A DNA stretch of 63,817 nucleotides, counting the filler, from Octopus bimaculoides (Eukaryota), in NCBI RefSeq assembly GCF_001194135.2. It is 7 parts of 7 records of this genome, joined end to end, with 100 filler letters (N's around TTAATTAATTAA, not from the genome) between each part and the next. Parts side by side here need not be neighbours in the genome. Positions count along the whole stretch, not along the records: positions 1 to 5,175 come from NW_026333430.1; positions 5,276 to 33,666 come from NC_068986.1; positions 33,767 to 40,888 come from NC_068990.1; positions 40,989 to 43,092 come from NW_026329526.1; positions 43,193 to 57,155 come from NC_068983.1; positions 57,256 to 60,667 come from NW_026422448.1; positions 60,768 to 63,817 come from NW_026396689.1. One strand, 5' to 3'. The notes under the pieces are model-generated. The model saw nothing but the letters and a program-made list of their open reading frames with translations, did not search any database and was not told the DNA's origin. This document shows positions 1 through 62,256 of the stretch, in pieces. Position 1 is the first letter of the stretch; each line of letters begins with the position of its first letter. The position numbers were made by a program, and so were the translations under genes.

Positions 1-952
1 CAAAGTATTCTGGGGTATCGGCTCTCGTCCAGAGCTTGTTATCAAATTCGATATTTTTTCTAGCTAATAAAATAATGTCTATCTTATCCCTAGTAATGAG
101 TGAGCGATTCATAGCAAAAATGAGGGCTCTATTTAGGAGAATGGGGGATATGCTAGAGTAATAGTTATTTATATCAAACTGAATAAACGAGAAGTTTTTA
201 GTGTTGTCAATAGATTTAAACCAGTTTAGTGCTTCTTCGGTATTGTTCCATAACTTTAAGGATAAATTAGGAATTATTAGAGGTAGAATCCTGTCTAGTA
301 TAAGCTTACTGAGTCTGCCAATGTCAAACTTAGATGAGCAAATGAGTCTCACAGATGGGTTATCTTGGAAGATCTTATGGTCTTTTAAATTAATCCTAGG
401 TTCAGCTGGAACTATTGGTTCAGTCCTATCTATTAAGTCGTAGTCCTGCATAATTTTCTTGATTTTTAAATTAATCTCAGATAGATTTCTTTTAGAGGTT
501 ATTTTGTATTTGGAGTTAAGTTCCTTCACGATCAGTTTTTTATAAGTAGTATAATCCAACCTGTATAAATTTCCAGTTTTGTCAGCAGGGACTAGAATAC
601 CCGGTTTGTTCTGTATTGACTTGATGAATTCCTTAAGCTTTCTTAGATGTAGATTTTTCCTAAGTGGATGCTCCTTGTATTTCAGATTAGCTATAAGTTC
701 CAAAAGATCTTTTTCGAAATTTTCTAGTAGTGTGTTAGGAGGTGGATTTTTTCTACTCTTAAAAATCTTCTTAAAATAGTTCCTATCTTGTGTTTCAATT
801 GATGGGTTTTGCATTTTGTTATCATGGTGATAGGCAATCCACCTCATCCTTCTAATAAAGTCATTAGTTCTGTGGATTAACAGCCACATATAAGTATCCT
901 TACTATGTAAGGGGATGTCTTTCAGAGAAAATTCTACATTAACCTTTTCCAT
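1..952 (-). mobile_element. Penelope-like element reverse transcriptase ORF, N-terminal part; uninterrupted and running off the window edge
   Basis: Hand translation from ATG 952 gives 317 codons with no stop: MEKVNVEFSLKDIPLH...FIRRMRWIAY...LVPADKTGNLY...LKDHK...VRLICSSKFDIGRLSK...FIQFDINNYYSSIS...PEYF. The SLKxIP, FIRRMRW, ADKT, KDHK and QFDIxxxYxSI motifs are typical of Penelope-like RTs. Confidence 0.85.
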
Positions 953-1991
953 CCTGTTCAACAAATTTAGTACCAGAAAAAACACACTCAGGTTCGAGAG
1001 GTAAGTTCAGTAGAAGGTTTAGATTTAGATTCAAGATTGAATATTGTACTTATGTGTAGGCACCAGAATATCGTATGGTATGGTATTATACAAAAACCAT
1101 TCCAAAAGTGGGGTAGCATGAAACGTGCGTACTGCAATCATCTTTGAAATCCGTGTTGCTTATTTTGAATGTTTTGATCACCTATCCTTTTGGAATNNNN
1201 NNNNNNATATATATATATATATATATATATATATATATATATATAGTGACGAACGGGTGGTGTGTTGTGTAATTCATCTAAGATTGCTCTGTGATCACTT
1301 CGACACCTGACTCAGCGCACACCGTGCGCCTGTTCAGACAACCTCGATTTAATGGAGAGCGTGAGATAACACTAGGCAACAAAAAACATTTATTGTCTGC
1401 TACCCAGACAAATGGTGCTGTACTAAACTAAATCGAGTACGCTGATTCCGAATTGCTGTAGCACGTCAGCATTTTGAGTAATGCGCATAATTATATATTA
1501 ATACTACATTTGAATCAGGAATAGTTAAGTTAAAGGTTAATTATTATTATGATAGTATATTAGTAGTGTATATAGTAAATTCATGTTCAATGGTACATAG
1601 TATATTTATGTTAAAGGAATAGTCACTTTATTTTTGTTATGCTCAGCTGTGTGTGTGTGTGTGTGTGTGTACATGTACAGAGGAGAATTTTTTTCTTCGA
1701 TTTGAAATGCACATCAATCTCAGAACGTGTTGCCATTTTTAAATTTTTGAATATATCTATTCAAACCAAAACAGGTTTCCACAATGTATTGTTTATCAAT
1801 GGACAAAATGAAGGTTTTGTAAAGTTTAAAGTTACAAGTAAATTCAGAAAAACATGTCCAAACAATCAAATGTTAAATGTCCACAGAAATTTCTATGAGT
1901 TTTACAAAGATATGCAGTAATAGAAGTTTCAGCTGCGAGAGTAATAGGTGAAAAAGAAATAACATTAAAACAAATAAGAAAAAGTGCGTGA

Positions 1992-2110
1992 TGCTTACAG
2001 CACCTAGGTTTCCCAAGCGGTTACCTATCTAAGTACTCACTAGGCTCGACGTTGCTTAACTTCGGTGATCGGACGAGAACCGATGCTCTCAGCGTGATAT
2101 GGCCGTAAGC
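1992..2110 (-). rRNA. 5S rRNA gene, solitary full-length copy
   Basis: The minus strand reads GCTTACGGCCATATCACGCTGAGAGCATCGGTTCTCGTCCGATCACCGAAGTTAAGCAACGTCGAGCCTAGTGAGTACTTAGATAGGTAACCGCTTGGGAAACCTAGGTGCTGTAAGC. It has a 9-bp terminal helix, TATTAAAA about 25 nt upstream and a T6 run about 10 nt downstream. Confidence 0.92.
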
Positions 2111-2530
2111 GATTGTCAACCTGCCTTTTAATACCTTTATTCTAATAAACGACTAAATGCAAGCAGCTTTTAACATTTTACAATCTATACTTACTTTTGT
2201 CACAATTTTCAAATCTTTACTTTACTTTTCTTCTACCAGTTCACTATTGCATCGGCTGAGCAAACTTTCTTTCTTTCTTTTATTCTAACTAACTCCCAAA
2301 TACACTACTAGCAGCTATCCACACACTCACTCACTTGCTTTCAGATTTCACTTTGCCGCTGCCAATTTCATCAATAGGCTTTCACTGTCACACCACACTA
2401 CCTTCACTACTACTATGTCCCAATGTTACCCACAAATGCCCCTTAACACTCACCACTACCCTCTACACGTCATCACAAATTTATGCTATGGCTATCAACA
2501 CCAATAGGAAGTACCTGTGGATCTTTGCAT

Positions 2531-3122
2531 AAGGATCCCCCAAAACAGCAACCAAATATGAATATCTATGCCAAAAATTATGCTTTGTGTTTGGTAGGAT
2601 CATAAAGGCATTATTTATTGATCTTCTCTCACGAAACTAGACCATTATTCTGATGTGCACTGTCATTAACTAGCTAATTTGAACAAAGAAAAAAATCAAG
2701 GAATTGAGGCTGGAGATTGCCAACAGGAAAGGGGTAGTGTTCCAACAAGACAATGCCCGACCACATGTGCCTTTGGCTATCCGAACAAAGTTACATGAAC
2801 TTGGCTGGTATCTCTTACTCCATCGACCATATTTTCCTGGTATTGCACCATCTGACTACTACTTATTTTTGTCTCTACAGAACTCTTTGCAAGAAAAAGC
2901 ATTTAACGAATTAGACGGAGTCAAAATGCATGTAGATAACATATTTGCTTCAAAACCAGTCAAATTTTATGCTGATGGAATATTTAAATTGCCTGATAGA
3001 TGTGCAAAGGCCATTAATAATAAAGGAAACTATTTCATGGAATAAAACCTATTGAAAAGTCAATTATTTATATCCCCTTTTGTGTATTGAAAAACGCTCA
3101 GAACTTTCCGGACATCCTAATA
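2531..3122 (+). mobile_element. Mariner (DD34D) transposase remnant, 3' half with right ITR
   Basis: Translation KIMLCVW...RKGVVFQQDNARPHV...APSDYYLFLSLQNSL...GNYF*. The element ends GAACTTTCCGGACATCCTAATA with a terminal TA. Stops and frameshifts are present. Confidence 0.9.
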
Positions 3123-3149
3123 CATACATACATACATACATACATACAT

Positions 3150-60279: not shown

Positions 60280-60530
60280 AAGGCGCATGGATTAGTGGTT
60301 GGGATGTTGCACTCACGATTGAGAGATTGTGGGTTCGATTCCCAGACCTGGCGTTGTGTTGTGTTCTTGAGCAAAGCACTTCATTTTCACGTTGCTCGTC
60401 GATCATTTCGATATCTGACGTGTAGCACCCAGTTGCACCTGTACAGGTAATATCGATTTGATGGAGGAAGTGAGTTTATATCTACACAAACATTTGATCA
60501 GTATAAACAAATCACCTGTGTGGTTGCACG
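60280..60530 (+). mobile_element. tRNA-derived CORE-type SINE (another family)
   Basis: GGCGCATGGATTAGTGGTT (A box), GGGTTCGATTCCC (B box), GTGTTCTTGAGCAAAGCACTT (CORE-like). Confidence 0.75.
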
Positions 60531-61124
60531 GTAAGAAATTGTCGAACCCTCATACGTCGTCTAACGACGGGAGAGTCCGTTATATACATATATATATATA
60601 TACATATATATACATACATATCTATACATATGTGTGTGTGTGTGTGTGTGTGTGTGTGTGTGTGTGTNNNNNNNNNNNNNNNNNNNNNNNNNNNNNNNNN
60701 NNNNNNNNNNNTTAATTAATTAANNNNNNNNNNNNNNNNNNNNNNNNNNNNNNNNNNNNNNNNNNNNTATACATATACATATATAAACACATATACATAC
60801 ATAACTGTTTAATAATGCCCTTGTAGTTCTTTGTAACTAGAATGATATATTTGAGATTTTCTATTATATAGAATTAGAAAAATATGTTTGGAGGCATTAT
60901 CATTATTATTATTATTATTATTATTATTATTATTATTATTATTATTATTATTATTATTATTATTATTATTATCATTATTATTATTATTATTATTATTATT
61001 ATTATCATTATTATTATTTTGATTGTTATCATCATCCTCATCATTACTATTATAATAACTTTTGCCTATATTAGAAAAGATTATCATTATTATTATTACT
61101 ATTATTATTATCATTGAGCGAGAG

Positions 61125-61680
61125 AACAGTACATGCCACCAAAGAGACGCCGGGGTACAAATATACGGAGCCCAGAATACCCATCATGACTACCCGTCTG
61201 AAAAGGGTACACCAGGCACATGCATCACAACCACATGTGAATGACATAATGATCTCATATCAAGAAAATCAGCGCATGACCTTGCAGGTGAGGCCCAGTT
61301 AGAATTTTCTTCAGGTCGGGTAGCCCATCCCGCTCGAAAGGTCCCTGAATAAGGTTTGTTTAAGGATGTTGAGCAAAACACCCATGTTTACAAAGGTGAA
61401 TTATTCAAACCGCAAAGAATTCCTCTCAACACATGGCTATGATGCTTCCCCATTACTTCTGCTCGTGATCAGAGATGCACATATTGTCAGCCAATAAGGG
61501 ACATGCTCAACTGGTTAAGGTCAAACAACTGACAAGCAAATCTGTGGTATGAGCAAAATATTTGCTGTAGCCCATCTTTTTATACGAAGACAAAACAATG
61601 TACATGATAACACTTCCAATCAGTTAAGATCAGAAGCCATGAGAGCCACTGCCTGGTATTGCATCCGGGCATTTATTATT
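61125..61680 (-). mobile_element. Family E repeat, second copy, inside an (ATT)n array
   Basis: Colinear with 12590-13145 and flanked by (ATT)n on both sides. Confidence 0.85.
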
Positions 61681-62221
61681 ATTATTATTATTATTATTAT
61701 TATTATTATTATTATTATTATTATTATTATTATTATTATTATCATTATTGTCATTATTATTATTATTATTATTATTATTATTATTATCATTATTGTTATT
61801 ATTCATCATCATCATTATCATCATCATCATCATTATCATTATTTTTATTATTCTTGTGTTATAAAAAAAATGCATTCTACCATTAGGTGTTAATTTCTGT
61901 TTTTGCCATGTTTAACCAAAGTATGGCACTGAGCAGTGGCCAAGCTTACAGTATGTAAACCGTCCCACTAGTATAGAAGCTCGATCTAATCTGAAGAATC
62001 ATCTTAAATATTGTACAAATTATAATTATTCAAAATTTCAATCAATTGCCAAGATGTTTTCTTGAATATAACAACCTTTATCTTTTCGTTACTTAACTCT
62101 TATTGACGTCCCGGATAACAACTATTTAACCATTGTCTTTTGCCTGTGAATCATACAATTATATGTGTGTATATGTGTGAATCTCAGTCCCTTTCCCTCT
62201 TACGCGTTCTTCAAACAGGTC

Positions 62222-62256
62222 TCTTCTGATGACGGACTCTCACCGAAACGTTATGA
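62222..62256 (+). ncRNA. Minimal type I hammerhead ribozyme motif (weak stem I)
   Basis: TCTT-CTGATGA-C-GG actctca CC-GAA-ACGT-T-ATGA. The core is intact, with a palindromic ACGT stem III and a GUU triplet as in the 11630 motif. Stem I pairs at 3 of 4 positions. Confidence 0.6.

Follow-up and report, generated by a model that had tools for sequence, protein, structure and literature searches.

Imperfect hammerhead motifs and a Penelope-like reverse transcriptase in an Octopus bimaculoides window, with one very high-copy family having U4C as its core norm

The window that was analysed here, 63,817 nucleotides of Octopus bimaculoides DNA (assembly GCF_001194135.2, seven parts joined with filler), raises the question of whether several unrelated hammerhead (HHR)-bearing repeats lie together in it, derived from or mobilised by Penelope-like elements (PLEs), as the initial annotation proposed. 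The motifs are real but imperfect. Near-complete type I HHRs are present at all three sites reported (near 11630, 29004 and 62222; motifs 1, 2 and 3 in Table 1), but each has a lesion; counting motif 4, the 56 kb of the window that is not N holds four near-complete motifs. Since no BLAST match occurs between the flanks of the three at E<1e-4, the claim that their contexts are unrelated is upheld.

Table 1. Coordinates in the window of the hammerhead motifs, half-motifs and PLE-related features
Feature	Coordinates	Strand	Basis
N-terminal half of Hydra-clade PLE reverse transcriptase ORF	2..952	-	protein homology, clade motifs
Segment with 3' half of hammerhead	1100..1197	+	sequence; antisense to ORF 2-952
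Stem II and hammerhead 3' half	5286..5349	+	by eye; begins immediately after (TA)n
Motif 1 unit, minimal PLE-type type I hammerhead	11591..11720	-	core 11670-11635; descriptor scans
Motif 2 unit, Hydra-type hammerhead	28978..29093	-	core 29045-29016; descriptor scans, reads, contigs
Candidate GIY-YIG endonuclease remnant	42872..43009	-	YIG..GR.LG.RF..H pattern by eye
Motif 4, decayed minimal hammerhead	47094..47123	+	CUGAAGA-A, AUAU stem III; descriptor scan
Motif 3, minimal PLE-type hammerhead	62226..62252	+	descriptor scans

Motif 1 has an additional nucleotide after A9, stem III ACGU, the core change A13G and, in stem I, a mismatched first pair; its unit has the 3' end of a SINE on one side and an (AAT)n run on the other, and one other copy, retaining A13, is present in the O. 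bimaculoides gene/protein model P0004. Motif 3, also with stem III ACGU, has a perfect core, its lesion being that only three of the first six stem I pairs form and that stem II is of 2 bp. In motif 4 stem II is of 5 bp, with G-U as the first pair. These three motifs have several features of the minimal type I HHRs that Cervera and de la Pena (2014, PMC4209133) described in metazoan PLEs: the CUGANGA-H box, the G10.1-C11.1 pair (motifs 1 and 3; G-U in motif 4), GAAA, the 2-nt palindromic insert, the short stem I, a nucleotide left unpaired after A9 and a stem III that is palindromic. The published HHRs occur as dispersed single copies at high density, as in the window, where each copy however has a lesion; most of them are scattered singletons of low activity that are "probably related" to truncated PLEs (PMC4209133). 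Octopus is absent from the entries consulted in supplement file 2 of that paper.

A strict scan (one core mismatch, stem II of at least 3, at least 4 of 6 stem I pairs) gave two matches, while 60 block shuffles gave a mean of 0.13 and a maximum of 1; a perfect core together with at least 4 of 6 stem I pairs had no match in the window. A second descriptor was built on the published PLE consensus, though only once the motifs had been seen. With at most two deviations it gave four matches against a shuffle mean of 0.37, four being reached in 1 of 300 shuffles, so that the motifs are commoner than in shuffled sequence. Compared with the minimal PLE hammerhead (CUGANGA-H, G10.1-C11.1, GAAA, palindromic stem III, NUH and short stem I), motifs 1, 3 and 4 show one or two deviations each, and no match was free of deviations. 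At most three deviations gave seven matches, three of which are one (GAT)n artefact (58061-58105, rejected); also rejected, as chance, were weak matches at 47906 and 588 to the first descriptor, which otherwise found only motif 2. The Rfam hammerhead models matched none of motifs 1, 2 and 3 at E<=10, and for the whole window, where 150 of 218 Rfam matches were listed, none of those was a hammerhead. Neither MFE nor co-fold prediction gave the active hammerhead fold for any motif, and these predictions were not used as support. It could be argued that only motifs 1 and 2 are real and that chance in AT-rich repeat DNA accounts for the half-motifs as well as for motifs 3 and 4; the late setting of the descriptor, the residual shuffle matches, the (GAT)n artefact and the Rfam result all speak for this view. 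We regard this as very improbable, because at most one deviation, which motif 3 alone attains in the window, was reached in only 9 of 300 shuffles, and because motifs 3 and 4 both show features that were not asked for, a nucleotide after A9 and a palindromic stem III, as do the Lottia and Crassostrea examples.

The uninterrupted Penelope reverse transcriptase (RT) ORF at 1-952 of the initial annotation is indeed stop-free for 317 codons, from ATG 952 to the window edge, but it is the N-terminal half only, being cut by that edge before the catalytic YRDD. Its homologues number 2628 matches at E<=0.001 (best 5.7e-68, 44%). The Hydra clade of PLEs is marked by an N-terminal RWK motif and by DKT replacing DKG (Craig et al. 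2021, PMC8557442), and the ORF has in common with it RW, here as RWI, and DKT, R37 and W38 being invariant in seven sequences. Among the 150 matches listed, DK[T/S] lies within the first 260 aa in 133 and [A/S]DK[G/A] in 3. The CxC linker (CxCX5C) and C-terminal GIY-YIG endonuclease of the clade, whose place in the ORF would lie outside the window, are found in relatives of the ORF: among 25 relatives of at least 680 aa, DK[T/S] is present in 24, Y[R/K]DD in all 25, the CxC linker in 19 and, by pattern, Y[I/V]G in 16, and Pfam GIY-YIG weakly matched one of nine relatives scanned. The Pfam search of the window ORF itself gave no match, and the word-index protein search with it gave three unnamed matches only. 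By an eye comparison of the N-terminus only, Hydra-1_Obim is a family other than that of the ORF. In tblastn of the 25 long relatives against the window, only 2-952 and one chance spot matched. The GIY-YIG remnant noted near 42885 is plausible from its sequence pattern, and the Atlas gives a weak pointer (rank 8, 0.90, 20% of members with GIY-YIG), but it has no Pfam match and no homologue, the Hydra-clade proteins included.

Of the several half-motifs claimed, two 3' halves are convincing (about 1107-1140 and about 5288-5312, both on the plus strand) and a third, at 62728, is doubtful. The ends of segment 1100..1197 are marked by a 10-bp inverted repeat, its half-hammerhead has GAAA, a palindromic stem III and a GUA site near 1132, and (TA)n follows downstream at 1207-1245, beyond a 10-N gap. 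From the PLE structure described in PMC8557442 we infer that this segment is likely an inverted, 5'-truncated 3' end of the same element as ORF 2-952, the true 3' end of which lies outside the window. The half-motif at 5286..5349 has no CUGANGA box, which likely reflects 5' truncation. No link between the ORF and motifs 1-3 was found, and the half-hammerhead attached to it differs from all three; six-frame reading upstream of motifs 3 and 4 gave no ORF remnant, and within the 64-kb window an autonomous parent was traced for none of motifs 1-4.

Motif 2 has stems I-III, a 3-4 bp palindromic stem III (ACUC-A-GAGU) and NUH, with a GGAA loop II, a 38-nt 3' tail and a predicted cleavage site at 29016/29015, and (TA)n lies on both sides of its unit. 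It does not match the invariant core CUGANGA, having C at position 4 (U4C), and it has A-U at the G10.1-C11.1 position. It is a member of a very high-copy family in two organisms, with 2352 contigs in the first organism's set and 3132 in the second's; the summed-depth ratios, about 2e4 and 7e4, give an order of magnitude only and no copy number. Canonical U4 makes up 1.6% and 2.3% of DNA depth in the two organisms and is seen in 24 of 240 and 11 of 207 RNA reads, no commoner than the CpG-partner change at G5. With canonical U4 so scarce (about 2% of DNA depth, 5-10% of RNA reads), the norm in the family is U4C, and the lack of the core in a family consensus, which the initial annotation had set down as evidence against its proposal, is in part what is found for motif 2. 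DNA variants of at least 4% fall at N7, the loop III centre, the stem I bulge and one wobble-compatible site; that variation lies mainly at free HHR positions suggests that the fold is constrained (post hoc P 0.009-0.07). The depth 20-25 nt upstream of the hammerhead is 2-3% (DNA) and 17-23% (RNA reads) of that inside, with several different loose ends upstream. Part of this drop is an artefact of short contigs. A 3' extension occurs in 17 and 32 contigs of the two sets; among the joints listed 7 of 10 are opposite-strand, and one at 29053-29061 was found in both RNA runs and in two DNA contigs.

The RNA of motif 2, the only motif examined on reads, was followed in two cDNA runs, 6% of each, to which the family contributes about 40 reads per million. 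Reads span the cleavage site, with no step in depth at the scissile bond. In 516 and 485 reads there is no pile-up of read beginnings or ends and no head-to-tail or circle joint at that site, in standard cDNA libraries that can miss cleavage products and lose small circles. T>C is present at H17 in 48 of 305 and 56 of 293 RNA reads, with 0.1% in DNA; for A15.1 the counts are 38 of 318 and 39 of 285, with 0.03% in DNA. The RNA is thus likely A-to-I edited, including at these two core positions, the DNA compared being not that of the same individual. Note also that RNA exceeds the contigs 5-21 fold in C>T/G>A changes as well and that positions with a change of at least 4% in RNA have a similar share for every transition type; because rare variants are under-reported by contigs, the case for editing rests on its larger fold, mostly 87-1900. 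Hyper-editing in octopus is massive (PMC5625713).

The closest published relative of motif 2 is in the Hydra clade (PMC8557442): the HHR of Hydra-2_aMil (File S1/S2) has the same stem I CTGT/ACAG, stem III ACTC/GAGT, A17 and cleavage triplet, and motif 2 sits in (TA)n, the target of the clade. By contrast, all the published Hydra HHRs listed there keep CUGA, and that of Hydra-1_Obim differs from motif 2, which has U4C and A10.1-U11.1. The system is not new for cephalopods, since Hydra-1_Obim with its HHR is already in the supplements of PMC8557442 and giant squid has 235 Hammerhead_1 loci (PMC6962438). What is new here is the motif 2 family, a Hydra-type HHR with U4C as the norm in thousands of copies in two organisms. 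The same core substitution was described in a viroid hammerhead (Ambros and Flores 1998); in the passage of PMC3088659 citing that work, U4C is a variant with considerable loss of activity in vitro, whereas in motif 2 it is the norm of a multi-thousand-copy animal repeat.

With moderate confidence we favour the reading that the motifs are real hammerhead sequences, likely pseudo-LTRs: 5'-truncated 3' ends that several unrelated PLE families have left in microsatellites. Most copies are likely passengers that do not cleave. The PLE RT-endonuclease would nick (TA)n or (ATT)n DNA and reverse-transcribe from the RNA 3' end, often halting at or just beyond the structured hammerhead and sometimes switching template before the halt, with an inverted copy left; the outcome of the early halt would be hammerhead-plus-tail units of 70-130 bp. 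As the motif 2 family has spread to thousands of copies with C4, fast self-cleavage is probably not needed for amplification. Most RNA from its copies would be uncut, and copies in inverted pairs likely give double-stranded RNA that ADAR edits, core adenosines included. The claim of several unrelated HHR-bearing repeats at high density is borne out by the four near-complete motifs, their PLE-type architecture and the PLE RT in the window; repeat status itself holds for motif 2, by its very high copy number, and for motif 1, by its one second copy, with no evidence for motifs 3 and 4, and non-autonomous status is demonstrated for none. Some points weigh against parts of the favoured reading: a short non-autonomous element would likewise explain the sharp depth drop just 5' of stem I, the variation at free HHR positions fits a still-functional element better than pure debris, and the viroid U4C variant, as PMC3088659 also notes, keeps enough activity in vivo.

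It is possible, though we doubt it, that the motif 2 family parasitises Hydra-clade PLEs as a short, SINE-like, non-autonomous element of about 80-150 nt. Its U4C hammerhead would then not be debris but would persist as a slow ribozyme, or because its fold is a signal that the PLE protein recognises. Hammerhead and tail are the sole module common to most copies while the upstream sequences vary, in 29 contigs of the second organism stem I is directly followed by an A/(TA)n run (agreement 0.46), and the near-fixation of U4C in both organisms, the positions of the DNA variants and the CUGA retained in the listed Hydra HHRs would all fit. Yet PLEs typically show varied 5' ends, inverted joints and a 3' extension that is optional (PMC8557442), no promoter was identified, and several diverged autonomous subfamilies would look alike. 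More speculative, and somewhat less probable, is a bolder form, in which octopuses would have tens of thousands of copies of a non-autonomous mini-element, hardly more than hammerhead and tail, with U4C fixed. The ribozyme would be maintained because its fold serves the Hydra-clade PLE RT as a cis-signal, not for fast cleavage, and ADAR at H17 and A15.1 would further tune or silence it.

That the motifs are instead non-LTR retrozymes like those of coral, mussel and axolotl, with efficient self-cleavage into small circular RNAs, seems to us very improbable. The metazoan retrozymes of PMC7229834 are likewise non-coding type I HHR repeats, are expressed, are proposed to use the PLE machinery and occur together with PLEs in molluscs; the units here are non-coding, stem III of motif 2 is potentially monomeric at 3 bp, and tandem copies could hide in the N gaps beside motifs 1 and 2. 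Those retrozymes, however, form tandem monomers of 170-400 nt, each with an HHR, and give abundant self-cleaved RNA, linear and circular, and no HHR-bearing tandem of 150-450 nt was found in the window, these gaps apart. The motif 2 family, the only one tested, is without the canonical core and showed neither end pile-up nor head-to-tail joint, in libraries poorly suited to small circles, so the circular-RNA part of the initial annotation finds no backing. The hammerhead fold of motif 2 is moreover not its predicted ground state (-2.4 vs -8.9 kcal/mol), which is weak evidence since hammerheads often fold so in silico.

Finally, we note that dense scattering of PLE hammerheads through a metazoan genome is known, one octopus family included, while their role in vivo is still termed a mystery (PMC7761336, PMC8557442). 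A very successful family with a core norm that is reported to lower activity and with fold-respecting variation separates the need for cleavage from the need for the fold, a question that can be tested for motif 2 on a 55-nt RNA. If the editing is confirmed, ADAR would be acting on ribozyme core positions in an animal of extreme editing, and if the reading of a mini-element kept as a cis-signal is true, the family would be a natural experiment on what PLE hammerheads do.

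The window, microsatellite-rich animal DNA with N at 7,560 of its 63,817 bases, truly contains hammerhead ribozymes (HHRs), and the initial annotation was right in claiming three: motifs 1-3 each combine boxes resembling CUGANGA and GAAA with a stem II, an NUH site and a palindromic stem III, and hits exceed those in shuffled sequence. With one core mismatch allowed, stem II of at least 3 and stem I of at least 4/6, the window gave two hits (motifs 1 and 2); 60 local dinucleotide shuffles averaged 0.13 and never exceeded 1. With a perfect core the same descriptor gave no window hit. 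A second descriptor, based on the PLE (Penelope-like element) consensus published for metazoans but fixed after the motifs had been seen, gave 4 hits (motifs 1-4) at up to 2 deviations versus a shuffle mean of 0.37, with 4 hits reached in 1 of 300 shuffles; with no deviation it gave no window hit. Each of the three motifs described as near-complete has a lesion: A13G and a mismatch at the first stem I pair in motif 1, U4C (C for U at core position 4) and A10.1-U11.1 in motif 2, and a broken stem I in motif 3, with positions numbered by the standard scheme. None of motifs 1-3 was recognized by the Rfam models. Their contexts are indeed unrelated, with no BLAST hit between their flanks, and among the half-motifs that had been noticed, two 3' halves lie beside (TA)n.

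Coordinates of features in the window
Feature	Position	Strand	Remark
Motif 1 hammerhead	11670-11635	-	boxes, stems II and III, NUH by sequence
Motif 2 hammerhead	29045-29016	-	boxes, stems II and III, NUH by sequence
Motif 3 hammerhead	62226-62252	+	boxes, stems II and III, NUH by sequence
Motif 4 hammerhead	47094-47123	+	fourth match of PLE-consensus descriptor, at most 2 deviations
Possible much-decayed hammerhead	62728-62765	+	follows CUGAUGA; 500 bp downstream of motif 3; fails both descriptors
3' half-hammerhead	about 1107-1140		adjoins (TA)n
3' half-hammerhead	about 5288-5312		adjoins (TA)n
Hydra-clade PLE RT ORF, N-terminal part	952 to 2	-	317 open codons
Segment upstream of ORF	1100-1197		10-bp inverted repeat at bounds
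Possible GIY-YIG remnant	43009-42872	-	pattern by eye; weak Atlas lead
Presumed Helitron-like Rep remnant	42051-42690	-	by eye
Presumed mariner-like transposase remnants	2683-3045, 35292-35618, 57581-57919		by eye
Presumed gag-like remnant	41056-41538		by eye
Forkhead gene	21361-25753	-	Pfam Forkhead 4e-40
5S rRNA gene or pseudogene	1992-2110	-	full-length, 99.6 bits
SINE-like copies, e.g.	7040-7209, 8138-8350, 9366-9575, 11358-11590, 39439-39640, 58206-58733		
Repeat pair	12588-13141 / 61116-61670		556 bp, 88% identity

Motifs 1, 3 and 4 share with the minimal hammerheads of PLEs a 2-nt palindromic insert and an additional nucleotide following A9, and resemble the Lottia and Crassostrea entries in the supplement of PMC4209133. 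According to that paper, such motifs number thousands per genome, mostly single and 'probably related to truncated PLEs', with monomers inactive and dimers weak. Motif 2, in a 116-bp unit with a (TA)n run on each side, has the same stem I, stem III arms and A17 as the Hydra-2_aMil HHR (entry in the PMC8557442 supplement). Another copy of the motif-1 repeat lies inside protein model P0004, named Octopus bimaculoides, with QPK versus QPE in the window, so that this one copy has A at position 13. P0004 is an O. bimaculoides dystrobrevin isoform model, and its start, the translated motif-1 repeat, reflects either exonisation or an annotation artefact.

The reported uninterrupted Penelope reverse transcriptase (RT) ORF is open throughout and its relatives have Hydra-clade motifs, but the window edge truncates it immediately ahead of the conserved FD.MG block, leaving the catalytic YRDD out of view. 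A protein homology search gave it 2628 relatives at E<=0.001; by patterns that we defined ourselves, among the 150 matches listed, the 25 of at least 680 aa have DK[T/S] in 24, RW in 19, Y[R/K]DD in all 25, the CxC linker in 19 and a C-terminal Y[I/V]G in 16. RWK and DKT are given as Hydra clade hallmarks in section 11 of PMC8557442, the supplement of which has an entry for Hydra-1_Obim from O. bimaculoides, inserted in (TA)n and with a canonical HHR; compared with this entry by eye, the window ORF is of a different family. The segment upstream of the ORF, with an antisense 3' half-hammerhead ahead of (TA)n, would be an inverted 5'-truncated copy, a kind typical of PLEs (PMC8557442). Because stems I and III of this half-hammerhead differ from those of motifs 1-4, nothing ties the ORF to these motifs.

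The GIY-YIG remnant reported near 42885 is plausible by eye, but gave no Pfam or homologue hit beside the weak Atlas lead and was not matched by Hydra proteins. Directly beside it lies what we take to be a Helitron-like Rep remnant, a label without Pfam support; Pfam also gave no hits for the presumed mariner-like and gag-like remnants. The forkhead gene, presumably FoxG/sloppy-paired-like, has extreme amino-acid repeat tracts, and its two long ORFs join across an N gap. The SINE-like family (roughly 230 bp, more than 15 copies, 70-85% identity, often in (ATT)n) looks tRNA-derived by eye, the repeat pair is probably a LINE end, and the 5S sequence is isolated in the window.

The repeat family holding motif 2 (family 2) was sampled by placing reads and contigs on 28968-29103 at 80% likeness. 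There were 2352 matching contigs in X3 and 3132 in X14, DNA runs of two organisms, and summed depth reached 4.7e5 and 1.6e6, versus 7-40 for single listed contigs; this suggests copies in the thousands or tens of thousands, with the caution that summed depth is not a copy number. U at position 4 takes 1.6% and 2.3% of DNA depth; among RNA reads it is found in 24/240 and 11/207. For the partner CpG change at G5 the DNA shares are 1.5% and 1.8% and the RNA counts 56/241 and 50/207. Since U4 is so rare, and no commoner than the G5 change, C4 is the family norm and not a lesion of the window copy. U4C is described as considerably lowering activity in vitro, yet a viroid carrying it stayed infectious (PMC3088659). 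Depth at 29068-72, as a share of that inside the hammerhead, is 2.6% and 1.7% for DNA and, for RNA reads, 23% and 17%; several different loose ends lie behind 29051-29057, and a variant at 28977, in a third of DNA depth, adjoins a multi-copy 3' extension. Strand switches, which can be library or repeat artefacts, are present in 7 of the 10 listed joints, 4 of them at 29052-29074; the joint at 29053-29061, however, recurs in the two RNA runs and in 2 DNA contigs.

In 6% of each of two RNA runs, family 2 has 516 of 12,895,792 and 485 of 11,974,664 reads, about 40 per million, shared equally between the strands. At sites where X3 contigs show at most 0.2%, H17 and A15.1 included, T>C and A>G rise to 7-30% in RNA (87-1900 fold, with three further sites at 10-35 fold), while C>T/G>A is 5-21 fold higher in RNA. 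The T>C and A>G changes are likely A-to-I editing of both strands, and editing is expected in octopus, with 1.1 million hyper-edited reads (PMC5625713). Against editing, contigs hide rare variants, the RNA share of changed places is similar for all transitions, and the DNA compared came from other animals.

The analysis shows the motif anatomy, the microsatellite flanks, the clade of the ORF and, for family 2, its abundance, U4C and uncut reads. Beyond this, we propose a model in which PLE RT-endonucleases would insert at microsatellites, insertion often halting near the hammerhead and leaving hammerhead-plus-tail stubs of several families; inverted pairs would form double-stranded RNA that is edited, and the majority of stubs would not cleave. 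Taken whole, this model is in our opinion reasonably probable. Its main rival is unlikely but serious: family 2 would be a genuine non-autonomous mini-element whose hammerhead is conserved in structure and cleaves slowly or not at all. In this rival's favour, the DNA variants of at least 4% in 29004-29056 lie, among the places listed, at N7, the loop III centre and the stem I bulge; X3 alone adds a wobble-compatible change at 1.3. Beyond the places listed, one further A>G place per DNA run belongs to this set, and random placement would give such concentration on free positions with a chance of 0.009-0.07, estimated post hoc.

Retrozymes with circles are very improbable. None of the RNA joints closes at the predicted cut 29016/29015, RNA depth is smooth across it, the reads being uncut, and no pile-up of read beginnings or ends occurs at motif 2 in the two runs (6% of each). 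That motifs 3 and 4 are chance products we hardly believe.

The suggested novelty for cephalopods does not hold, hammerhead-bearing PLEs of cephalopods being already in print with the Hydra-1_Obim HHR (PMC8557442, supplement), and giant squid has 235 Hammerhead_1 loci on record (PMC6962438). In the literature covered, with most subscription papers outside it, no animal repeat family with U4C fixed came to light, nor any account of hammerhead cores being edited. The finding is real and for the most part known, with hammerhead stubs of PLEs next to an element of the Hydra clade; to this the motif-2 family adds a new, testable twist.
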